A stretch of DNA of 32,000 bases from Xanthomonas campestris pv. campestris str. ATCC 33913 (lineage in GTDB: Bacteria > Pseudomonadota > Gammaproteobacteria > Xanthomonadales > Xanthomonadaceae). The stretch covers positions 250,325 to 282,324 of the forward strand of contig NC_003902.1 in assembly GCF_000007145.1 (NCBI RefSeq). The letters are read 5' to 3'. The translations under genes were made by a program, and so were the position numbers. The notes beneath the pieces are model-generated. The model had not been told where the DNA came from. It saw nothing but the letters and a program-made list of their open reading frames with translations, and searched no databases. Positions 3,484-24,311 of the stretch are shown here, piece by piece (the stretch's first letter is position 1; the number at the start of each line of letters is the position of its first letter).

Positions 3484-4026
3484 ATGTCGACGGACGAGTT
3501 CCGCGAGCCACCCAGCCTGTACCTGCCGCGGGCGAACGGCGATGTGTGGCGCGAGGGCGACGTGCTGGTGTGTACGGCGGGCGCCAATCTGCCGCCACGA
3601 TGCGTCAAGTGCAACGCGCCGGCCGACATGCCGCCGCGCCGCTACATCTTTCATTGGCACCATCCGGTGATCTATGCGGCGCTGCTGCTGGGCGTGCTGC
3701 CGTACGTGATCCTGGCCATCGCGCTACGCAAGCGCAGCGCGCACGTGCTCACCCTGTGCGCGCAACACGAGCGCCGCCGCGTGCGTTATGTCGCGGTGGC
3801 GATGGCATCGGTGTTGGCATTGCTGGTGTGCGGGCTCTCGATCGATAGCCAGTTCCGGTGGCTGATCGGTGCCGGCGTGATGGCGGTGATGCTGTTGATC
3901 GGCCGCCTGGGGTCGCGCGTGTTGTCGCCGACGCAGGTCGACCACGTGCAGGCACGGTATCTGGGTGCCTGCGATGCATTCCTGAGCGATCTGCCGCCAC
4001 TGCCGCAGGCAAAGCGCCAGCGTTGA
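3484..4026 (+). CDS. Hypothetical membrane protein (~180 aa) with an N-terminal CxxC segment and hydrophobic helices
   Basis: The ORF is 3445..4026, and the likely start is ATG 3484 (MSTDEF...). It contains PPRCVKCNAP followed by hydrophobic stretches (VIYAALLLGVLPYVILAIAL, VAVAMASVLALLVCGL, LIGAGVMAVMLLIG). Confidence 0.5.
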   Translation: MSTDEFREPPSLYLPRANGDVWREGDVLVCTAGANLPPRCVKCNAPADMPPRRYIFHWHHPVIYAALLLGVLPYVILAIALRKRSAHVLTLCAQHERRRVRYVAVAMASVLALLVCGLSIDSQFRWLIGAGVMAVMLLIGRLGSRVLSPTQVDHVQARYLGACDAFLSDLPPLPQAKRQR

Positions 4027-4037
4027 TGCAACGTGGC

Positions 4038-4060
4038 GCAGCCGTGGCGTGCGCGGCTGC
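4038..4060. terminator. Hairpin between two convergent genes (GCAGCCG-n9-CGGCTGC)
   Basis: A perfect 7-bp inverted repeat lies in the 55-bp gap between the 3484..4026 gene (+) and hemY (-). There is no clear U-tract. Confidence 0.3.
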
Positions 4061-4081
4061 AAGGCCGAACAATTGCATCGA

Positions 4082-5347
4082 TTACACGAGGCGATCATCC
4101 GGCGTGATCGGGCCGGATGGTGGGGTTTCATGGGCCACCACGATCGGGCCGCGGATGGATTGCTGCGGCATGATCTCCAGCACCGGTTCGCCGCGCGCGG
4201 CGCGCAGTGCGTTGGCGTAGCAGTGCTGCGCGGAGAGCAGGTCACCGGCCGCCGCAAACCCGTGGCCCAGTTCTTCCCAGGCATCGGCACCGGCGCCATT
4301 GGCCAGTGCGCGGTGCAGGAATTCTTCGGCCTGCGACCATTGTTGCTGATGGCGCGACAGGCGGGCCAGGGTGAGCAGCAGTCCGGGGCTGTCCGGATGC
4401 TGGGTCAGCCAGCGCTGGGCACTGGCACGCCGCGAATCGTATTTTTCCAGCGGCAACACGCCGTACAGGCGCACCAGCGATTCGTCCCACTGCGTATCCA
4501 GCGCCTGTTCCAGGCTGTGCACCGCAGCATCGTCCCAGTGCAGCACGGCTGCGCGTTGGGCATAGGCGCCAACGACGGCCGGGTAGGTGCGCAGCGCTTT
4601 CGGCAAGGCTTCCCAGCGTTCGGCCAGGGCGTTGGCATCGCCGGCCTGCAGCAAGGTCTGCTCGGCCAATGTGGCCTCCAGTGCACTGTAGGCCTCCGGC
4701 GCCAACACCGCCTGCTGACGCAGGGCGCCGAGTTGGCCATAGGCCTCGTCGGCGCGTCCGATCTGCGCCAGTGCATGCGTGCGTAACAGCAGGCCGCGGG
4801 CCGGCAGCGGCTGGGCGGCGGCGCTGTCGAGCGCATTGATCGCATCCACCGGGCGCTGCTGCGCCAGATGCCGCTCGCCCTGCAGCAGTGCGTGTGCGGT
4901 GGGGTCGCGCTCGGCCAGCTGCTGCGCCAGCGCCGTGGCCGAGGCCACGTCACCGCGCGCATCGGCCACGCGCACGGCGCTGGCCAAGGCAATGCCGCTG
5001 ACTTCTTCGTCCTCGCTGGCGTTGACCAGCAGGCGCTCGGCACGCTGCCACTGGCCGTGATCGGCAGCGCGCAGGCCTTCGATCAGGCGCGCACGGCCCT
5101 TCTTGCGGCGGTACTTGCCCCACACCCGGAACGGCAGGCTGATCAGCGTCCACAACAGCCAGAGCACCAGCAGCGCGATGACCAGGATCAGCACCGCCTG
5201 CGGCATGGCGGCGCGGTAATCGTTGCCGCCCACGCTGACCACCACATTGCCCAGGTCGTAGCTGTTCTGGTGCGACAGCCATTGCGCGCCCAGCACGCCC
5301 AGCGCCACGGCAACCAGCAGGATCAAGACGGTACGCAGCACTTTCAT
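4082..5347 (-). CDS. hemY: HemY-type heme biosynthesis-associated TPR membrane protein
   Basis: It has two N-terminal TM helices and then a long TPR-like Ala/Leu-rich region. It sits directly downstream of hemX and hemD, with an ATGA overlap with hemX at 5344-5347. Confidence 0.8.
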   Translation of the reverse strand: MKVLRTVLILLVAVALGVLGAQWLSHQNSYDLGNVVVSVGGNDYRAAMPQAVLILVIALLVLWLLWTLISLPFRVWGKYRRKKGRARLIEGLRAADHGQWQRAERLLVNASEDEEVSGIALASAVRVADARGDVASATALAQQLAERDPTAHALLQGERHLAQQRPVDAINALDSAAAQPLPARGLLLRTHALAQIGRADEAYGQLGALRQQAVLAPEAYSALEATLAEQTLLQAGDANALAERWEALPKALRTYPAVVGAYAQRAAVLHWDDAAVHSLEQALDTQWDESLVRLYGVLPLEKYDSRRASAQRWLTQHPDSPGLLLTLARLSRHQQQWSQAEEFLHRALANGAGADAWEELGHGFAAAGDLLSAQHCYANALRAARGEPVLEIMPQQSIRGPIVVAHETPPSGPITPDDRLV

Positions 5348-15761: not shown

Positions 15762-16220
15762 TTACTGGCCCAGGGTGGCGCTGACCAGTGCTTCCAGCTC
15801 GACCGGGGTGGGCTGCAGCTGCGGCACCGGCAGGTTGACGATGACCTGGCCGACCAGCGCACCCAGTGCAGCAGCGGCGTGGCCGGTGGCAGCCTGCGCG
15901 GTGGCGGCAGCGGTATGCACCAGCAGGTCGGCGCGCTGTTCGGCGGTCGGACGCACCTGCACGGTGGCCAGGGTCACGATGCGCGGGCCGGCCTGTTCGG
16001 CGGCCAGGGCAGCCAGTTGCTCGGTCGAAGGGCGCACCTGCACTGCGTTCAAGGTGCGGATGCCGCTGCTGCGCTCCAGCGTCTGCTGGGCGATCTGGTC
16101 GACGGCCGGGCGGACCTGCACGGTGTCCAGCGTGGTGAGGGAAGCGGCATGCGCGTTGGCAAAGGAGGCGCCGGCAATCAGGGCGGCGGCGAGGGCGATG
16201 CGCAGGGTCTTGGTGGTCAT
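15762..16220 (-). CDS. Secreted protein with three VQVRP-x2-[DE]Q repeats (152 aa), function unknown
   Basis: A signal peptide (MTTKTLRIALAAALIAGASFANAHA) is followed by TLDTVQVRPAVDQ, TLNAVQVRPSTEQ and TLATVQVRPTAEQ at 26-27-aa spacing, then an Ala-rich tail. Confidence 0.6.
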   Translation of the reverse strand: MTTKTLRIALAAALIAGASFANAHAASLTTLDTVQVRPAVDQIAQQTLERSSGIRTLNAVQVRPSTEQLAALAAEQAGPRIVTLATVQVRPTAEQRADLLVHTAAATAQAATGHAAAALGALVGQVIVNLPVPQLQPTPVELEALVSATLGQ

Positions 16221-17028: not shown

Positions 17029-18045
17029 ATGCTCTTCCAGAATGTCTCCATCGCGGGACTGGCGCATATTGATGCGCCGCACACGCTGACTTCCAAGGAA
17101 ATCAACGAGCGCCTGCAACCGACCTACGACCGTCTTGGGATCAAGACCGACGTATTGGGCGATGTTGCCGGTATCCATGCACGGCGCTTGTGGGACCAGG
17201 ATGTCCAGGCATCGGACGCCGCCACCCAGGCTGCCCGCAAGGCCCTGATCGATGCCAACATCGGCATCGAGAAGATCGGCTTGCTGATCAATACCTCGGT
17301 GAGCCGTGATTACCTGGAGCCGTCCACGGCCTCCATCGTGTCCGGCAACCTGGGTGTCAGCGACCACTGCATGACCTTCGACGTGGCCAACGCCTGTCTT
17401 GCCTTCATCAATGGCATGGACATCGCTGCGCGCATGCTCGAACGCGGCGAGATCGACTACGCCCTGGTCGTGGATGGCGAAACCGCTAATCTTGTTTACG
17501 AAAAAACCCTCGAGCGCATGACCTCGCCGGACGTCACCGAAGAAGAGTTCCGCAACGAACTCGCTGCATTGACGCTGGGCTGCGGTGCGGCCGCGATGGT
17601 GATGGCACGTTCGGAGCTGGTCCCCGACGCGCCGCGCTACAAGGGCGGCGTGACGCGCTCGGCCACCGAGTGGAACAAGCTGTGCCGGGGCAACCTGGAC
17701 CGCATGGTCACCGACACCCGCCTGCTGCTGATCGAAGGCATCAAGCTGGCGCAGAAAACCTTCGTGGCCGCCAAGCAGGTGCTGGGCTGGGCCGTGGAGG
17801 AGCTGGACCAGTTCGTCATCCACCAGGTCAGCCGCCCGCACACTGCGGCGTTCGTGAAGTCCTTCGGCATCGACCCGGCCAAGGTCATGACCATCTTCGG
17901 TGAGCACGGCAACATCGGCCCGGCCTCGGTGCCGATCGTGTTGAGCAAGCTCAAGGAGCTGGGCCGGTTGAAGAAGGGCGATCGCATCGCGCTGCTCGGC
18001 ATCGGTTCGGGCCTGAACTGCTCGATGGCCGAAGTGGTTTGGTGA
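17029..18045 (+). CDS. oleA: OleA: FabH-like thiolase catalysing head-to-head Claisen condensation of acyl-CoAs (olefin pathway)
   Basis: This is a 338-aa KAS-III-like protein with the nucleophile Cys in FDVANACLAF. The same neighbourhood encodes an alpha/beta hydrolase, an AMP-ligase and a 3beta-HSD-type reductase, which together form the oleABCD set known from Xanthomonas and Stenotrophomonas. Confidence 0.85.
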   Translation: MLFQNVSIAGLAHIDAPHTLTSKEINERLQPTYDRLGIKTDVLGDVAGIHARRLWDQDVQASDAATQAARKALIDANIGIEKIGLLINTSVSRDYLEPSTASIVSGNLGVSDHCMTFDVANACLAFINGMDIAARMLERGEIDYALVVDGETANLVYEKTLERMTSPDVTEEEFRNELAALTLGCGAAAMVMARSELVPDAPRYKGGVTRSATEWNKLCRGNLDRMVTDTRLLLIEGIKLAQKTFVAAKQVLGWAVEELDQFVIHQVSRPHTAAFVKSFGIDPAKVMTIFGEHGNIGPASVPIVLSKLKELGRLKKGDRIALLGIGSGLNCSMAEVVW

Positions 18046-18080
18046 TCCGTCGCTGATGACGTGTTAAGAAAATTGGATTT

Positions 18081-18118
18081 TTAGAACACGTTCCATCATC
18101 ATGTTCGTTCTAAGAACA
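18081..18118 (+). promoter_or_regulatory. Operator-like repeats immediately upstream of fic
   Basis: TTAGAAC (18081-18087) and GTTCTAA (18107-18113) form a perfect inverted repeat. AGAACA occurs at 18083 and 18113 with TGTTC (18102-18106) between them. All of this sits in the AT-rich 72-bp leader. Confidence 0.4.
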
Positions 18119-19281
18119 TGAGTGAGGCAGGCATGGAAAGCGTGTCGAAGTTCATCGCTGAGCTCCCCTACAACGATCTCCCGCTGCTTCCACCAGCGGG
18201 AGATATCGAGACGCGGAGCCTGCTCAAGGCTTGCATCAATGCGCGAACTGCGTTGGCGGAGCTAAAACAGGCAACAGCGTTGCTGCCAAATCCTACGGTG
18301 CTGATCAATACAATTCCGATGCTTGAGGCTCAGGCCAGTTCTGAGATCGAGAACATCGTGACGACGACGGACGAACTTTTCCGATACGCCGAAGATCAGG
18401 GCAAGGCACAAAAGCCTGCTACCAAGGAAGCGTTGCGTTACCGCAGTGCGCTCTACGAAGGATTTCAGTCGCTAAAGCAGCGGCCTTTGTGTACAGACAC
18501 CTCAGTTGTCGTCTGCAGCCGTATCAAGGCGGTGCAAATGCAGATCCGTCGCGTGCCCGGAACTGCTCTGGCCAACGACCAAACTCAGCAGATCATCTAC
18601 ACACCGCCGGTTGGCGAAACGCTGCTGCGCGACAAACTGGCCAACTGGGAACGCTTCATCCATGAAAACACCGACATCGATCCATTGATTCGCATGGCTG
18701 TCGCGCACTATCAATTCGAAGCGATCCACCCGTTCACGGATGGCAATGGCCGCACCGGGCGGGTACTGAACTTGCTGATGCTCATCGAGCAGGGCTTGCT
18801 TGATCTGCCAGTGCTCTATCTGTCCCGTTACATCATCCGCAACCGCAGCGACTACTATCGCCTGCTACTGGATGTGACGCGGCATGGGCATTGGGCCGAA
18901 TGGATTCACTACATGCTGGCTGCCGTTGCCGAAACCGCTGCATGGACGACAGCGAAGATCCAGGCGATTCGAGGACTGGAGGCGCAGGCCCGCGACCACA
19001 TTCGTGACCACGCTCCCAAGGCATATAGCCGGGAGTTGGTGGACGTGATTTTCAACCAGCCTTACTGCCGTATTCAGAATGTCGTCGACATGGTGGGGGT
19101 CACGCGCCAGACCGCCGCACGGCATCTCAAAGAGCTTGCGGATATTGGTGTGCTGCACGACCAGCGCCAGGGCAAGGAGAAGCTATTTCTACACCCGGCG
19201 TTTCTGCGCTTGCTGACAAATGACGACAACCAGTTACCCGCCTACCGCGTGCCTGCGCGGAACGTGGAACCGAACACATGA
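18118..19281 (+). CDS. fic: Fic family protein, class II (N-terminal inhibitory helix), with a C-terminal winged-helix DNA-binding domain
   Basis: The Fic active-site motif HPFTDGNGRTGR is at 18727-18762. The inhibitory motif SxxxEN (SSEIEN) is at 18337-18354. A C-terminal HTH-like segment reads VVDMVGVTRQTAARHLKELADIGVL. ATG 18133 is an alternative start, with GAGG 5 nt upstream. Confidence 0.9.
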   Translation: MSEAGMESVSKFIAELPYNDLPLLPPAGDIETRSLLKACINARTALAELKQATALLPNPTVLINTIPMLEAQASSEIENIVTTTDELFRYAEDQGKAQKPATKEALRYRSALYEGFQSLKQRPLCTDTSVVVCSRIKAVQMQIRRVPGTALANDQTQQIIYTPPVGETLLRDKLANWERFIHENTDIDPLIRMAVAHYQFEAIHPFTDGNGRTGRVLNLLMLIEQGLLDLPVLYLSRYIIRNRSDYYRLLLDVTRHGHWAEWIHYMLAAVAETAAWTTAKIQAIRGLEAQARDHIRDHAPKAYSRELVDVIFNQPYCRIQNVVDMVGVTRQTAARHLKELADIGVLHDQRQGKEKLFLHPAFLRLLTNDDNQLPAYRVPARNVEPNT

Positions 19282-20909
19282 CCAACAAATACGATCATCT
19301 CGACCGTCAAACCTTGATCGGTCTACTGCAGCGGCGCGATGCCGAGCGGCAGCTGGGTTTGGTATGGGAGCGCGACGAGATCGAGGCCGACCAGGCACTC
19401 AACGACGATTTTGTCGCGTTGTCATTGGACGCTGGTTTAAGCCATGGTGAGGCACCGTGGGACAACCTGATCATCGAAGGCGACAACTACGACGCGCTGC
19501 GTGCGCTGCGGATGACTCACAAAGGCGCGATCCGCTGCATTTATATCGACCCGCCTTACAACACCGGTAATAAGGACTTCGTCTACAACGACCGTTTCGT
19601 CGACAAGACTCACCGGTTCCGTCATTCGCTGTGGCTGGAGTTCATGTATCGGCGCCTGCAGCTGGCTAAAGAGTTGTTGGCTGATGATGGAGTTATTTTT
19701 GTCAGTATTGATGACAATGAGGTGTTTCGACTTGGAATGTTGATGGACCGTGTATTTGGAGAGAATAATTTTATTGCCAATGTTATTTGGCAAAAAGTCT
19801 TTTCCCCAAAAGGGACAGCACAACATTTCTCTGACGATCACGAGTATGTGATTATTTACGGGCGTGACAAAAATAAATGGCGACCTAACTTGCTTGCAAG
19901 AACGGCTGCTCAAGATCGCGCCTATAAAAATCCTGATGATGATCCCCGCGGCCTTTGGACTTCGGGAGATCTTTCAGCTAGAAATTACTATTCCAAGGGA
20001 GTCTATTCGATTGTCGGCCCAACTGGCCGAGTCATCGCAGGCCCGCCTGCAGGAACGTATTGGCGTTTCTCCGAAGAAAGATTTAAAGAGCTGGATGCGG
20101 ACAATCGTATTTGGTGGGGCAAAAGTGGCGATAATATGCCTCGACTCAAGCGGTTTCTAGCAGATGTCCAGCAAGGCACGGTTCCACAAACACTTTGGAC
20201 TTACGGCGAAGTCGGTCACACGCAAGATGCAAAGAAGCAGCTACTTGAAGTCCTCAATTTTAATTCTACAAATGATGTTTTCTCTACCCCTAAGCCCATC
20301 CAATTGATGGAGCGAATACTAAGCATCGCCAGCAAGCCGGGTGACACTGTCCTTGATTTCTTTGCAGGCTCGGGAACGTTTGCTCAGGCAGTTGCCAAAC
20401 TAAATGCTGAAGATGGCGGCAATCGTAAGTTCATCCTGGTCAGCAGCACCGAAGCCACCGAGGATACGCCTGACAAGAACCTCTGCCGCGATGTTTGCGC
20501 CGAGCGCGTGCGTCGTGTGTTGGGTGGCTACACCAATGCCAAGGGGCAACCGGTTGAGGGCCTGGGTGGCGGCTTCGCCTACTTGCGTACCCGTCGTATT
20601 CCGAAGCATCGGTTGGCGCTCAAGCTGGACCACGCGGAGGTTTGGCATGCGCTGCAGCTATTGCATCAGCGGCCGTTGTCGTTCTGGCCTGGCGGCGGTT
20701 TTGCCAGTGATGGCGAACTGGCCTATCTGGCGGATTTCCAGGCCGCACATGTAGAACAGTTACGTGAGTGGCTGCGGACCCGCACATCGGCAGTCGCTGC
20801 CGTCTATACCTGGTCGACGGAACGGCTGAACGGATTGCTGGGAGAGCCAGCGGCCGACTTGTCTTTGTTGCCCTTGCCGCACCACCTGCGCGAACGCTTC
20901 GGACGTTGA
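19278..20909 (+). CDS. mod: Beta-class N6-adenine/N4-cytosine DNA methyltransferase, Type III Mod-like (543 aa)
   Basis: NLIIEGDNYDALRAL, then IYIDPPYNTG (motif IV, 19548-19559), precede VLDFFAGSGTFAQA (motif I, ~20355-20378). That IV-TRD-I order is the Type III Mod arrangement. The start overlaps the fic stop (ATGA). Confidence 0.88.
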   Translation: MTNKYDHLDRQTLIGLLQRRDAERQLGLVWERDEIEADQALNDDFVALSLDAGLSHGEAPWDNLIIEGDNYDALRALRMTHKGAIRCIYIDPPYNTGNKDFVYNDRFVDKTHRFRHSLWLEFMYRRLQLAKELLADDGVIFVSIDDNEVFRLGMLMDRVFGENNFIANVIWQKVFSPKGTAQHFSDDHEYVIIYGRDKNKWRPNLLARTAAQDRAYKNPDDDPRGLWTSGDLSARNYYSKGVYSIVGPTGRVIAGPPAGTYWRFSEERFKELDADNRIWWGKSGDNMPRLKRFLADVQQGTVPQTLWTYGEVGHTQDAKKQLLEVLNFNSTNDVFSTPKPIQLMERILSIASKPGDTVLDFFAGSGTFAQAVAKLNAEDGGNRKFILVSSTEATEDTPDKNLCRDVCAERVRRVLGGYTNAKGQPVEGLGGGFAYLRTRRIPKHRLALKLDHAEVWHALQLLHQRPLSFWPGGGFASDGELAYLADFQAAHVEQLREWLRTRTSAVAAVYTWSTERLNGLLGEPAADLSLLPLPHHLRERFGR

Positions 20910-20910
20910 T

Positions 20911-23412
20911 ATGCCCATGCCACTGAAAGAGTTCCAAACCGTCATCTGCGACGGGATCGTCGCCCAGTTCGGTGAGGTGCGCGCGCTATACCGACAGATC
21001 GCCGCCGCAGCACCGGAACGCATTGACGAGGCGCGTCGCAAGGACGCTGCCATCGTATTGCAGGCACCGACTGGCGCTGGCAAGACGCGCATGGCGATCG
21101 AGGTGATGCGCCGCGTGTCGATCGAGGAACGGGTGTTGTGGTTCTGGTTCGCGCCCTTCACCGGGCTGGTCGAGCAATCGCGCAAGGTCTTGAGCAATCA
21201 AGCGCCAGAGCTGGCGCTGCTGGATCTGGATGCGGACCGGCAGCTGGACGCCGTGCGCGGCGGCGGCGTGTTCGTGGTCACCTGGGCGTCGTTGGCGGCA
21301 CGCAAGGCCGAGAGCCGGCGCGCGCGCCAGCGCGGCGATGCCGGCATGGCAATCGATGACGTGATCGCAATGGCGCGCGAGCAAGGCCTGCGTATCGGCT
21401 GCGTAGTGGACGAGGCGCATCACGGATTTCAGCGTGAGACTCTGGCACGGGCGTTCTTCTGCGATGTGCTGAAGCCCGATTACGCACTCCTGATGACCGC
21501 CACGCCACGCGACGCTGACATGAAGGCCTTCGAACGCACGACTGGCTATTCCGTCGGAGAGCCTGCGGAATGGGCTTCGGTCAGCCGTGCCGACGCAGTC
21601 GATGCGGGCCTGCTCAAGCGCGGCGTGCGGATGGTGCGTTTTATCGCCCGCGATGGCGATACCGCGCAGTTGGTGGATTTCGAACATCTCGCATTGCGCG
21701 AGTGCACACAGATGCATCGGACCATTCGCAAGAACTTGGCAGATGCGGATATCGCACTGACGCCATTGATGCTGGTGCAGGTGCCGGATGGCAAGGTTGC
21801 GCAGGAGGCGGCACGGACGTATCTGGTGGAGCAGCTGGGATTCGATGCGACCGCCGTTCGTGTACATACCGCTGCCGAACCTGATCCGGATCTACTGTCG
21901 TTGGCGCAGGATCCAACGGTGGAAGTGCTGATCTTCAAGATGGCCGTGGCGCTGGGGTTCGATGCGCCACGTGCATTCACCCTGGCAGCATTGCGCGGCG
22001 CGCGCGACCCGAGCTTCGGGGTGCAAGTGATCGGCCGCATCATGCGCCGCCACGCCCTTCTACAGGCGCAGGCGGTTGTACCGCCTGTTCTGGATCACGG
22101 ATATGTATTTCTTGCTAATTCTGAGTCACAAGAAGGTTTGCTGCTAGCCGGCGCCCAGATCAACACACTCACCACGCAAGCACCCGAGCTGGGGACGCAG
22201 ACGGTTGTCACCATGATCGGCGATGGTGCCTCGCTGCAGGTCGTGCGCAGCGGAGAGCCTCTGAGCCTGCTGGTATCGCGCGCAGGGGTGCACGTGTTGG
22301 ACGCCGAAGCAGAGAGAGATGCTGTCTCCTCGGCGGGCACTACGAGTGATGTGGCTGATGCGCTGGTGGGGACCCCGTTCGCTGGGATGGCGAATGCGAC
22401 CCAAGCCGCGCTGGAAATGTTCGGGGGCGAGGGTGCTTGGCCTGCTCGGGCCACAAGTGTCGCTGGTGCATTTGTGTTGGCTCAAGAGAGCATGTATCGG
22501 TATCCGCGTCGTCCCGATGCTCCGGATCGCTTGCGTGGAGAACAGTTACCGCCGGTGTCAGCTGATTTCGAGGCAGGCCTGGCTGCGCATGTCGATTTCT
22601 CACCAGAAGTGCTGGCCGATCGCCTACGTGGCAAGGTGCAGGTCCAGCGCTTGGACACAGACCTGTTTGCTGGTCATCGGGTCACAGAAGATGGAAGCGA
22701 CCTTTGGGCCAATCTTTCGCCGGAAGCTGTCGCCGAAAAAGCCGAACAGATCCGATTGCGGCTCGTAGAAGCCAACGACCGCGAGCTATACCGCAGACTA
22801 TTGGAGCGTTTCGTTCGTGCGATCGAAGCGTCAGGCGCAGAAGTGCCTGAAGACGAAGAGCTGCAAATGCGCCAGTTGGACCTCTTGCTGGTTAGACGCC
22901 CTCGGCTGCTGCGAGAGGCATTCAAAAGCCTGCGTCAGGGCCAAGTGCTCGATGTCGATGTGCTACTACCGGCCGAGTTGTTCAGCGATCAACCGCTGCG
23001 CTCAGCCAATCGCGGGCTTTATGGCGTCTTTCCAGCTGGTTTGAACCAGGATGAGCTAGCCATTGCGGAGCGCCTGGATGCGAGTGCCCAAGTGCGCTGG
23101 TGGCATCGCAATCAACCCAAATCAGGCATCGGTCTCTATCGCTGGGATGAGGGAGACGGCTTCTACCCTGATTTCGTGGTGTCTGTCGCAGAACGTTCCG
23201 CTCCAGGTATTGCGCTGCTGGAGTTGAAGGGCGAGCACTTGTGGGGCAAGCCCAGTGAAGTGGACAAGAGTGCGGCAATCCATCCCGATTACGGTGCTGT
23301 TTTCACGGTCGGCCGTAAGCGCGGCGAGCGTGATTTCTTCTATCTACGCGAGTTGGGTGGACGCCTACAACGCGCGGGTTCCTTTGATTTGGATCGGATG
23401 CGATTTACATGA
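20911..23412 (+). CDS. res: SF2 DEAH helicase with a C-terminal PD-(D/E)xK nuclease, Type III restriction Res-like (833 aa)
   Basis: Helicase motifs: LQAPTGAGKT (motif I, ~21064-21087), VVDEAHH (motif II), LLMTATP (motif III) and QVIGRIMRR (motif VI). The C-terminal nuclease motif is YPDFVV...LLELKG (23167-23229). The gene starts 1 nt after the mod stop, and its stop overlaps the oleB ATG. Confidence 0.85.
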   Translation: MPMPLKEFQTVICDGIVAQFGEVRALYRQIAAAAPERIDEARRKDAAIVLQAPTGAGKTRMAIEVMRRVSIEERVLWFWFAPFTGLVEQSRKVLSNQAPELALLDLDADRQLDAVRGGGVFVVTWASLAARKAESRRARQRGDAGMAIDDVIAMAREQGLRIGCVVDEAHHGFQRETLARAFFCDVLKPDYALLMTATPRDADMKAFERTTGYSVGEPAEWASVSRADAVDAGLLKRGVRMVRFIARDGDTAQLVDFEHLALRECTQMHRTIRKNLADADIALTPLMLVQVPDGKVAQEAARTYLVEQLGFDATAVRVHTAAEPDPDLLSLAQDPTVEVLIFKMAVALGFDAPRAFTLAALRGARDPSFGVQVIGRIMRRHALLQAQAVVPPVLDHGYVFLANSESQEGLLLAGAQINTLTTQAPELGTQTVVTMIGDGASLQVVRSGEPLSLLVSRAGVHVLDAEAERDAVSSAGTTSDVADALVGTPFAGMANATQAALEMFGGEGAWPARATSVAGAFVLAQESMYRYPRRPDAPDRLRGEQLPPVSADFEAGLAAHVDFSPEVLADRLRGKVQVQRLDTDLFAGHRVTEDGSDLWANLSPEAVAEKAEQIRLRLVEANDRELYRRLLERFVRAIEASGAEVPEDEELQMRQLDLLLVRRPRLLREAFKSLRQGQVLDVDVLLPAELFSDQPLRSANRGLYGVFPAGLNQDELAIAERLDASAQVRWWHRNQPKSGIGLYRWDEGDGFYPDFVVSVAERSAPGIALLELKGEHLWGKPSEVDKSAAIHPDYGAVFTVGRKRGERDFFYLRELGGRLQRAGSFDLDRMRFT

Positions 23413-24311
23413 CCTACCCCGGCTATTCCTTCACCCCCAAGCGCCTGGATGTGCGCCCCGGCATTGCGATGTCGTATCTGGACGAAGGTCCGAGCGATGG
23501 CGAGGTGGTGGTCATGCTGCACGGCAATCCGTCGTGGGGCTATCTGTGGCGGCATCTGGTGAGCGGTCTGTCTGATCGCTACCGCTGCATCGTGCCCGAC
23601 CACATCGGCATGGGCCTGTCCGACAAGCCCGACGACGCGCCCGATGCGCAGCCGCGTTACGACTACACGTTGCAATCGCGCGTGGACGATCTGGACCGCC
23701 TGCTGCAGCACCTGGGCATCACCGGGCCGATCACGCTGGCGGTGCACGATTGGGGCGGCATGATCGGTTTTGGCTGGGCGCTTTCGCACCACGCGCAGGT
23801 CAAGCGCCTGGTGATCACCAACACCGCCGCATTCCCGCTACCGCCGGAAAAGCCGATGCCATGGCAGATCGCGATGGGCCGGCATTGGCGGTTGGGCGAG
23901 TGGTTCATCCGCACCTTCAATGCGTTCTCCTCCGGCGCCTCGTGGCTGGGCGTGTCGCGGCGGATGCCGGCGGCTGTGCGCCGTGCCTATGTCGCCCCGT
24001 ACGACAACTGGAAGAACCGCATTTCCACGATCCGCTTCATGCAGGACATCCCGCTGTCGCCGGCCGATCAGGCCTGGTCGCTGCTGGAGCGCTCGGCGCA
24101 AGCGTTGCCGTCGTTTGCCGACCGCCCGGCCTTCATCGCCTGGGGCCTGCGCGACATCTGTTTCGACAAGCACTTTCTGGCCGGTTTCCGCCGCGCGCTG
24201 CCGCAGGCCGAGGTGATGGCGTTCGACGATGCCAACCACTACGTGCTCGAAGACAAGCACGAGGTGCTGGTGCCGGCAATCCGCGCGTTCCTGGAGCGCA
24301 ACCCGCTGTAG
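23409..24311 (+). CDS. oleB: OleB: alpha/beta-hydrolase (haloalkane-dehalogenase-like) beta-lactone decarboxylase
   Basis: MLHGNPSWGYLWR and the Asp nucleophile elbow AVHDWGG are present, with a C-terminal ANHYVLEDK. It lies within the ole cluster. Confidence 0.85.
   Translation: MTYPGYSFTPKRLDVRPGIAMSYLDEGPSDGEVVVMLHGNPSWGYLWRHLVSGLSDRYRCIVPDHIGMGLSDKPDDAPDAQPRYDYTLQSRVDDLDRLLQHLGITGPITLAVHDWGGMIGFGWALSHHAQVKRLVITNTAAFPLPPEKPMPWQIAMGRHWRLGEWFIRTFNAFSSGASWLGVSRRMPAAVRRAYVAPYDNWKNRISTIRFMQDIPLSPADQAWSLLERSAQALPSFADRPAFIAWGLRDICFDKHFLAGFRRALPQAEVMAFDDANHYVLEDKHEVLVPAIRAFLERNPL

Follow-up and report, generated by a model that had tools for sequence, protein, structure and literature searches.

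We analysed a 32,000-nucleotide stretch of the chromosome of Xanthomonas campestris pv. campestris str. ATCC 33913 (contig NC_003902.1, positions 250,325 to 282,324; this whole stretch is called the window, and coordinates are counted from its first nucleotide), and we focus here on a fic gene on its plus strand that lies directly upstream of a predicted Type III restriction-modification gene pair. A first-pass annotation of the window, made from its letters and open reading frames (ORFs), had described the gene product as a Fic protein that looks catalytically competent, inhibited by its own helix and joined to a DNA-binding tail. Judged from its sequence and a structural model, the product of 18133-19281 is an ordinary orthologue of SoFic (SO_4266) of Shewanella oneidensis. 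The gene and its parts are as follows.

18133-19281, plus strand: predicted SoFic orthologue, 382 amino acids from the conserved start (NF046030, PADLOC and PDB matches; structural model)
18208-18282, plus strand: predicted N-terminal dimerisation helix, residues 26-50 in the 382-residue numbering, leading straight into the inhibitory helix (helix at residues 28-49 in the model; SoFic alignment)
18337-18354, plus strand: predicted inhibitory motif SSEIEN, S69-E73-N74 in the 382-residue numbering and S74-E78-N79 in a 387-residue numbering (translation; SoFic alignment)
18727-18762, plus strand: Fic active-site motif HPFTDGNGRTGR, H199-R210 in the 382-residue numbering and H204-R215 in the 387-residue numbering (translation; alignments)
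18982-19203, plus strand: C-terminal winged helix-turn-helix, SoFic-like_C (PF21248; Pfam E-value 6e-31 over residues 289-362)

The ORF list and direct translation both gave a plus-strand reading frame at 18118-19281 that encodes 387 amino acids, and translating it reproduced the coordinates of every element in the first-pass annotation: the Fic motif at residues 204-215, SSEIEN at residues 74-79 with the catalytic histidine 126 residues further on, and the helix-turn-helix-like segment GVTRQTAARHLKELADIGVL at 19096-19155 (residues 327-346). Pfam assigned the product three domains in the order Fic_N (4e-27), Fic (3e-15) and SoFic-like_C (6e-31), all above gathering thresholds. The SoFic-like architecture with a DNA-binding tail that had been proposed was borne out by the last of these domains, by NF046030, the NCBIfam equivalog called ‘protein adenylyltransferase Fic’ (615 bits, the cut-off being 550), and by the agreement of the structural model with SoFic. 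The PADLOC SoFic defence model matched at 5e-123, all solved SoFic entries in the PDB (3EQX, 3ZCN, 3ZEC, 9TCH and others) matched over the full length at about 1e-143, and BLASTP found 60% identity across 367 residues to a protein that is itself 99% identical to SoFic.

An AlphaFold prediction from a 12-sequence alignment was poor (predicted local distance difference test score, pLDDT, of 62.8) and was discarded; the model used instead, built from 109 homologues, had a pLDDT of 88.9 and a predicted template-modelling (TM) score of 0.88. Superposition on class II Fic structures, which had been suggested as a check, placed this model on SoFic with ATP (3zcn_A) with TM scores of 0.91 and 0.94 and a root-mean-square deviation of 1.9 Å over 370 columns. 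The structures that matched next after SoFic were other Fic proteins with a winged helix-turn-helix, and FICD. In the model, the C-terminal domain comprises three helices and a two-strand wing. The alignment placed the dimer-interface residues E26, L31, K32, I35 and L50 at the same numbers as in SoFic, and R28 corresponds to the dimer residue R25 of the Escherichia coli orthologue EcSofic.

The nearest relatives of the protein are in Xanthomonas, the closest being that of Xanthomonas sp. LMG 31884 (97% identical in protein and about 90% in DNA). The family counts at least 8,000 database proteins at E ≤ 1e-20, and homologues occur in 266 plasmid records. Salmonella accounts for 161 of these 266 plasmid matches; on one of the plasmids, the IncFIC conjugative plasmid NZ_CP030222.1 of Salmonella enterica, a SoFic homologue of about 55% identity (3486-4562) lies between virB4 and other type IV secretion genes of a VirB-type operon. 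The feature is already known, as the equivalog of a structurally and biochemically characterised protein, and the NCBI name is already ‘protein adenylyltransferase Fic’. What we add here is a correction of the start codon, a pair of conserved operator palindromes and the close coupling of the gene to a Type III restriction-modification pair.

The arrangement in which the inhibitory helix is carried by the enzyme itself (class II) was also upheld. The pattern (S/T)xxxE(G/N), which taken alone is weak evidence, occurs twice in the protein, as SSEIEN and as SALYEG at residues 110-115. SSEIEN aligned residue for residue with the inhibitory helix of SoFic (S69-N74), the published class II representative, and S69 and E73 were invariant among the 109 homologues; for these reasons SSEIEN, not SALYEG, is the predicted inhibitory motif. 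The Fic motif HPFTDGNGRTGR was invariant in two homologue alignments, one of them with 109 sequences. In class I systems, such as VbhT/VbhA and FicT/FicA, the inhibitory helix is on a separate small antitoxin, whereas here the motif lies in cis, and neither the ORF list nor the sequence contained a small ORF between fic and the downstream mod gene.

The 87-bp leader of fic contains two dyads, and the second begins exactly 40 bp after the first. The elements of the leader are as follows.

18062-18088: candidate operator O1, long dyad TGTTAA-N15-AGAACA with the N15 geometry of the family; the extended dyad, ACGTGTTAA...TAGAACACGT, covers 18059-18091
18102-18118: candidate operator O2, short dyad TGTTCG-N5-AGAACA with the N5 geometry of the family; the extended dyad is TCATGTTCG...AGAACATGA
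18124-18127, plus strand: Shine-Dalgarno-like GAGG, 5 nt ahead of the ATG at 18133 (read from the sequence)

Each of the two patterns had two matches in the window, compared with 0.15 expected for O1 and 0.20 for O2, and in both cases the second match was in GC-rich coding sequence. For 76 SoFic genes, drawn from Proteobacteria, Verrucomicrobia, Planctomycetes, Spirochaetes and other groups, we surveyed the 200 nt upstream. With at least 10 of 12 positions matching, TGTCGA-N5-TCGACA was found in 58 of the 76 loci and TGTCGA-N15-TCGACA in 53, with about 0.5 in shuffles for either. The profile of dyad spacers peaked at 5 and 15 alone, besides a smaller peak at 26-28 that probably represents pairs of half-sites from adjacent operators. 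The 40-bp phasing from O1 to O2 is conserved, and all four TGT anchors were present in 45 of 77 upstream regions. The common layout in the family is a long dyad, 13 nt, a short dyad, 13 nt and another long dyad; in most members the short dyad is the 17-bp spacer between a -35 element TTGACn and a -10 element TA(T/A)(A/G)CT, and the third dyad often ends on the start codon, overlapping it with its final base. The leader in the window lacks this third dyad. Dyads with at least 11 of 12 matches numbered 124 in the 260 nt upstream of fic genes and 23 in the other approximately 926 kb of the loci, and a search for further operator copies in the window and in 81 loci, including copies for restriction-modification genes, gave only chance-level matches.

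The S. oneidensis promoter used in a recent binding study carries the same dyads (10.64898/2026.07.09.737422, Table S2), and fragment F1, to which binding in vitro was best, contains a perfect TGTCGA-TTGAA-TCGACA. That paper makes no mention of a palindrome, an inverted repeat or a consensus, and leaves undefined the half-site of the family, A(C/T)(A/G)TGTCGA, and its N5 and N15 dyads, for which the phasing is 40 and 30 bp.

Half-sites vary with the first residues of the predicted recognition helix, which here is RQTAARHLKELAD and lies inside 19096-19155. Helices with lysine and threonine (AKRQTAS) went with a TGTCGA half-site in 22 of 23 loci, and those with glycine or glutamate plus alanine (AGRQAAS, AERQAAS) with TGTCGC or TGTCGT in 18 of 23. 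In the clade of the window protein the helix VTRQTAARH goes with TGTTCG, TGTTCT or TGTTGC, and one xanthomonad locus (L002) has a symmetric substitution in both arms of O1. The best reading of this covariation and of the symmetric change is that the winged helix would bind the dyads directly. We hold only loosely to the idea that the TGTTCN half-sites mark a clean switch of specificity, because TGTTGA and TGTTTA variants occur alongside TGTCGA in other loci. The correspondence between helix and half-site could be tested by residue swaps.

The operators also bear on where translation begins. The A of the ATG at 18118 is also the base on which O2 ends, and in its extended form the palindrome reaches 18121. 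In the 97% identical gene of Xanthomonas sp. LMG 31884, none of the ATGs equivalent to 18118 is in frame, and just upstream the frame is closed by a TAA, which leaves the ATG equivalent to 18133 as the sole start. Because the ATG at 18118 overlaps the palindrome and is out of frame in that relative, and because GAGG precedes the ATG at 18133, the latter is probably the true start, giving 382 residues. The motif positions in the first-pass annotation were right, but its start codon, and hence its residue numbers, are probably off by five. With the start at 18133, numbering is identical to that of SoFic up to about residue 88 (E26, L31, K32, I35, L50, S69, E73 and N74); beyond a one-residue indel in the alignment, H199 corresponds to SoFic H198, R207 to R206 and Y242 to Y241. 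Within the first fic codons (GTG TCG AAG), at 18145-18150, there is a consensus half-site TGTCGA. This may be a relic of a third operator, which in most family members is placed at that distance from O2.

Downstream of fic, two genes follow without a break and are in turn followed by a core gene.

17029-18045, plus strand: fabH-like 3-oxoacyl-ACP synthase III, flanking core gene upstream of fic
19278-20909, plus strand: Type III Mod methyltransferase, its start overlapping the SoFic stop by 4 bp (ATGA; PADLOC MTase_III 4e-119, Pfam N6_N4_Mtase 2e-41)
20911-23412, plus strand: Type III Res-like helicase-nuclease, starting 1 nt after mod (Pfam ResIII 6e-11, PADLOC REase_III 4.5e-16)
23409-24311, plus strand: alpha/beta hydrolase, flanking core gene, its start overlapping the res stop

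The Mod translation shows DPPY and FAGSG motifs, and a YPD...ELK motif resembling PD-(D/E)xK is present at the C-terminal end of Res. With an N6_N4-type Mod followed by a Res helicase-nuclease, 19278-23412 appears to encode a Type III restriction-modification system. Res is divergent: it had no NCBIfam match and its REase_III matches were partial, and its helicase motifs are kept. From 17029 to 24311 the genes lie on a single strand with almost no intergenic space except the 87-bp fic leader, and a scan of 17900-23700 for terminators found no terminator-like site at the fic-mod or mod-res junction. The G+C content is 0.57 in fic, 0.53 in mod and 0.61 in res, compared with 0.66 in the flanks.

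Comparison with other genomes showed that the pair can be absent. In X. euvesicatoria, X. arboricola and X. cucurbitae the segment corresponding to approximately 19227-23390 (mod-res) is missing, and SoFic and its operators are retained between the fabH-like gene and the hydrolase. The pair is therefore an insertion or a deletion, whose junctions fall inside the final ~55 nt of fic and ~20 nt short of the res stop. Because the first junction falls within fic, the C-terminal tail of SoFic differs between the forms with and without mod-res. The combination of fic with mod-res was also found in Pseudoxanthomonas and in two metagenome-assembled genomes, one of Xanthomonas and one of Lysobacteraceae. 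In Pseudoxanthomonas kalamensis (L006, 9128-11047) the gene between SoFic and mod, which has a 4-bp overlap with the SoFic stop, encodes a 639-amino-acid protein with Schlafen/AlbA_2, HATPase_c_4 and Fic-like_C winged-helix domains. In the Xanthomonas metagenome-assembled genome (L003, 8001-9635) the SoFic frame lacks its usual stop and continues for ~490 nt into mod in another frame, which reflects either a genuine extension of the C terminus or an error in the assembly.

Homologues of the mod-res of the window followed SoFic in four Lysobacterales loci only. We considered and rejected a general linkage of SoFic to this type of mod-res; elsewhere the neighbours are other types of restriction-modification genes or other defence genes. 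The immediately downstream gene varies among hsdR, hsdM, methyltransferase fusions, NACHT, reverse transcriptase, deaminase and NOV_C genes, and restriction-modification genes stood beside SoFic in 17 of 81 loci (tblastn). In Shewanella sp. SP1S2-4 (L081, 4165-14957) a Type I operon holds a SoFic that shares 99% identity with the prototype, in the order hsdR, SoFic, hsdM, hsdS, an ABC/SMC-like ATPase (527 amino acids) and a 287-amino-acid protein. The SoFic papers that we examined make no mention of this Type I context of the Shewanella gene. The association of SoFic with restriction-modification genes is not new, because Fic/Doc toxins in such neighbourhoods were noted in 2013 and proposed as part of a multi-layer defence (PMC3710099).

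Much is known about what orthologues do. Wild-type SoFic shows almost no auto-AMPylation, and the E73G substitution raises auto-AMPylation and lets ATP bind competently (PMC3667792). SoFic attaches AMP to switch I of EF-Tu, and AMPylated EF-Tu inhibits translation; de-AMPylation by SoFic requires E73, and AMPylation depends on the dimer formed by the N-terminal helix, and the substitutions E26A, L31D, K32A and L50D variously weaken the dimer, disrupt it or eliminate AMPylation (10.64898/2026.07.09.737422). The dimer binds the 100 bp just upstream of its own gene, which a monomeric mutant does not, and the authors, describing a constitutive and efficient de-AMPylase, present SoFic as a regulator of transcription and translation (10.64898/2026.07.09.737422). 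A literature search on the gene name mloA returned only this SoFic preprint. Wild-type E. coli Sofic is toxic in a manner that requires the dimer and the C-terminal domain, and AS1, the 47-amino-acid product of a downstream gene, counteracts the toxicity (PMC12249575). In the preprint by Millman et al., SoFic is a stand-alone defence protein present in a substantial fraction of genomes.

These reports bear directly on the remaining claims of the first-pass annotation. The suggestion of a triggered toxin or an autoregulator was well founded, as both roles are documented in orthologues: toxicity and phage defence (PMC12249575; Millman preprint) and promoter binding (10.64898/2026.07.09.737422). 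The idea that the enzyme is simply self-inhibited stood in so far as the inhibitory glutamate is present, but it is too simple: the same glutamate catalyses de-AMPylation, wild-type EcSofic is toxic, and E73G did not raise steady-state EF-Tu AMPylation (preprint 10.64898/2026.07.09.737422 / PMC12249575). GyrB and ParE, named as example targets, found no support, whereas a translation factor, named beside them, agrees with the target reported for the orthologue. The experiments proposed there have in essence been done already on orthologues, with outcomes in the predicted direction.

We think it likely, from sequence, model and analogy together, that the product of 18133-19281 works by a SoFic-like mechanism. 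It would be a dimeric class II Fic enzyme that acts as a stand-alone anti-phage growth-arrest protein and is also bound to its own promoter, with the N-terminal dimerisation helix leading into the inhibitory helix (S69, E73 and N74), then the Fic active site (H199-R210) and finally the winged helix. By homology, the dimer would move AMP from ATP to switch I of EF-Tu and halt translation, and the same active site would take the AMP off again through E73, so that this glutamate would be a switch between AMPylation and de-AMPylation and not a mere lock. The two winged helices of the dimer would sit on the dyads and give transcriptional autoregulation, and phage infection would shift the balance to AMPylation and abort the infection. 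Any control exerted through O1 and O2 probably extends to mod-res, because fic is translationally coupled to mod and res and no operator copy was found elsewhere.

Several points weigh against this view. The target, the defence and the repression are all carried over from orthologues of 55-60% identity, in which EF-Tu AMPylation is itself only a presumed basis of phage protection. On the DNA side, the half-sites in the window (TGTTCG, TGTTCT and TGTTAA) agree with the consensus TGTCGA at TGT only, the hexamers flanking O2 are degenerate here (TCATCA and TGAGTG), and a sigma-70 promoter scan of 17900-23700 gave no promoter-like site in the fic leader; read-through from the upstream fabH-like gene is possible. 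Shared ancestry also partly inflates the covariation counts between helix and half-site.

Other explanations differ mainly in how much they make of the neighbouring genes. SoFic might be chiefly a transcriptional controller of the Type III pair, with the dimer on O1 and O2 setting the level of Mod and Res (for example, delaying res after horizontal transfer) and the Fic activity secondary, in the manner of C proteins, which are controllers of Type II restriction-modification systems. Such a role would be compatible with the SoFic-like mechanism, and fic, mod and res are indeed consecutive (a 4-bp overlap, then a 1-nt gap), their junctions lack terminator-like sites and operators are confined to the fic leader. 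A methyltransferase or restriction gene also comes directly after SoFic in many unrelated loci: Type III genes in L001, L003 and L009, Type I hsdM in L046 and L081, hsdR in L025 and L030, and methyltransferase fusions in L012, L020 and L024. However, xanthomonads that lack mod-res (L002, L004 and L007) keep SoFic at the same chromosomal site with intact operators, and SoFic protects as a single gene; these two facts argue that it is independent of a restriction-modification partner. Just 17 of the 81 loci have restriction-modification genes nearby, the invariant catalytic and inhibitory residues speak against a secondary role for the enzyme, and we see this controller role, for which co-transcription of fic, mod and res is only presumed, as a minority possibility. 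SoFic could instead guard the linked system as PrrC does at the EcoprrI locus, kept latent by the restriction-modification proteins and turning to AMPylation once a phage anti-restriction protein disables them. Both SoFic and PrrC shut down translation; SoFic lies repeatedly within Type I operons, as hsdR-SoFic-hsdM-hsdS (Shewanella and L046) or hsdS-SoFic-hsdR (L021, L025 and L055), and upstream of Type III genes in the window; and the multi-layer defence proposed for Fic/Doc toxins near restriction-modification genes (PMC3710099) points the same way. We nevertheless find a guardian role quite improbable: the defence phenotype came from a stand-alone protein, most SoFic loci have no restriction-modification neighbour, an interaction of SoFic with Mod, Res or Hsd proteins is unreported, and defence genes form islands irrespective of any functional link. 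The two ideas could be merged, with SoFic as a promoter-proximal gatekeeper whose operator array (O1, O2 and O3) governs both the toxin and the downstream defence genes, making it controller and translation-arrest back-up in one and possibly a PrrC-like guardian that responds when restriction is disabled. If this rather doubtful proposal were true, the governed genes in the window would be mod-res (Type III), and those in Shewanella and in other phyla would be hsdM/S or hsdR (Type I).

The remaining alternatives set the restriction-modification genes aside. That SoFic forms a two-gene toxin-antitoxin or addiction module, in which a small AS1-like partner neutralises it and which mainly stabilises the island, would fit the effect of AS1 on EcSofic (PMC12249575) and the label ‘addiction module protein’ on homologues in several database records. 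Against this, the 4-bp overlap of fic and mod excludes a gene in between, L002 has just 82 nt from fic to the next gene, a conserved small downstream ORF was not found across 80 loci and the inhibitory helix lies in cis, all of which makes such a module highly improbable; one locus, labelled Klebsiella (L031; GC-rich and probably mis-binned), held no convincing small ORF. A housekeeping regulator that tunes translation reversibly under stress through AMPylation and de-AMPylation of EF-Tu, with no particular role against phage here, would suit a constitutive de-AMPylase framed by its authors as a regulator (10.64898/2026.07.09.737422) and the fact that several Xanthomonas species have the gene at one shared chromosomal site, flanked by fabH-like and alpha/beta hydrolase genes. 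It is improbable given the G+C content of fic, which is below that of the flanks (0.57 versus 0.66), the patchwork of defence genes around SoFic across loci (restriction-modification, NACHT, reverse transcriptase, deaminase and NOV_C), the 266 plasmid copies and the anti-phage effect demonstrated in homologues.

Among known systems, the closest is SoFic itself (SO_4266/mloA of S. oneidensis; ‘SoFic’ in DefenseFinder and PADLOC), with which the window protein shares the three-domain architecture, 60% identity over the full length, the dimer residues E26, L31, K32, I35 and L50, the inhibitory S69, E73 and N74, the Fic motif, the winged helix and the type of upstream dyad. It differs in its half-sites (TGTTCN instead of TGTCGA) and in the start of the recognition helix (VTRQTAARH instead of AKRQTASVY), and whereas the usual SoFic-family layout has three operators with the last overlapping the start codon, this gene has two followed by a leader with a Shine-Dalgarno sequence and ATG. 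The Shewanella gene lies between hsdR and hsdM-hsdS (Type I), whereas this one is coupled to a Type III mod-res. EcSofic (E. coli H397, PDB 9VJC, PMC12249575) belongs to the same family and is a toxic dimeric AMPylase that requires its C-terminal domain, with R25 matching R28 here, but it has the downstream 47-amino-acid antitoxin gene AS1, for which there is no room between fic and mod.

CccR of Yersinia pseudotuberculosis is also a class II Fic protein with a C-terminal helix-turn-helix, and its dimer represses its own promoter through a palindrome that has widely spaced arms and lies around the -35 and -10 elements (PMC9755527); by analogy, the two are probably alike as autoregulators. CccR is nonetheless only ~29% identical to SoFic by its authors’ comparison, is a type VI secretion effector, targets FtsZ (PMC9755527) and uses a different operator, AGATAATCAT-N26-ATGATAATCT. 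PrrC and RloC anticodon nucleases are likewise translation-disabling toxins encoded within (Type I) restriction-modification operons, but their folds are unrelated (ABC ATPase plus HEPN), and any dependence of SoFic on restriction-modification would be conjectural. C proteins are about 80 amino acids long, have an Xre-type helix-turn-helix and act at C-boxes upstream of the C and R genes, whereas the protein here has 382 amino acids and a SoFic-like_C winged helix; any resemblance would be functional only and is hypothetical.

The main value of the analysis is a correct annotation, that of a Xanthomonas genome in which a SoFic defence gene and a Type III restriction-modification system are joined. 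The definition of the operators, the correspondence of helix and half-site and the restriction-modification context, with a gene of 99% identity to the prototype inside a Type I operon and the window gene at the head of a Type III pair, could be of use to those who study SoFic. Elsewhere in the window, a minus-strand ORF at 15762-16220 encodes 152 amino acids with a signal-peptide-like N terminus and three T(L)xxVQVRP repeats.

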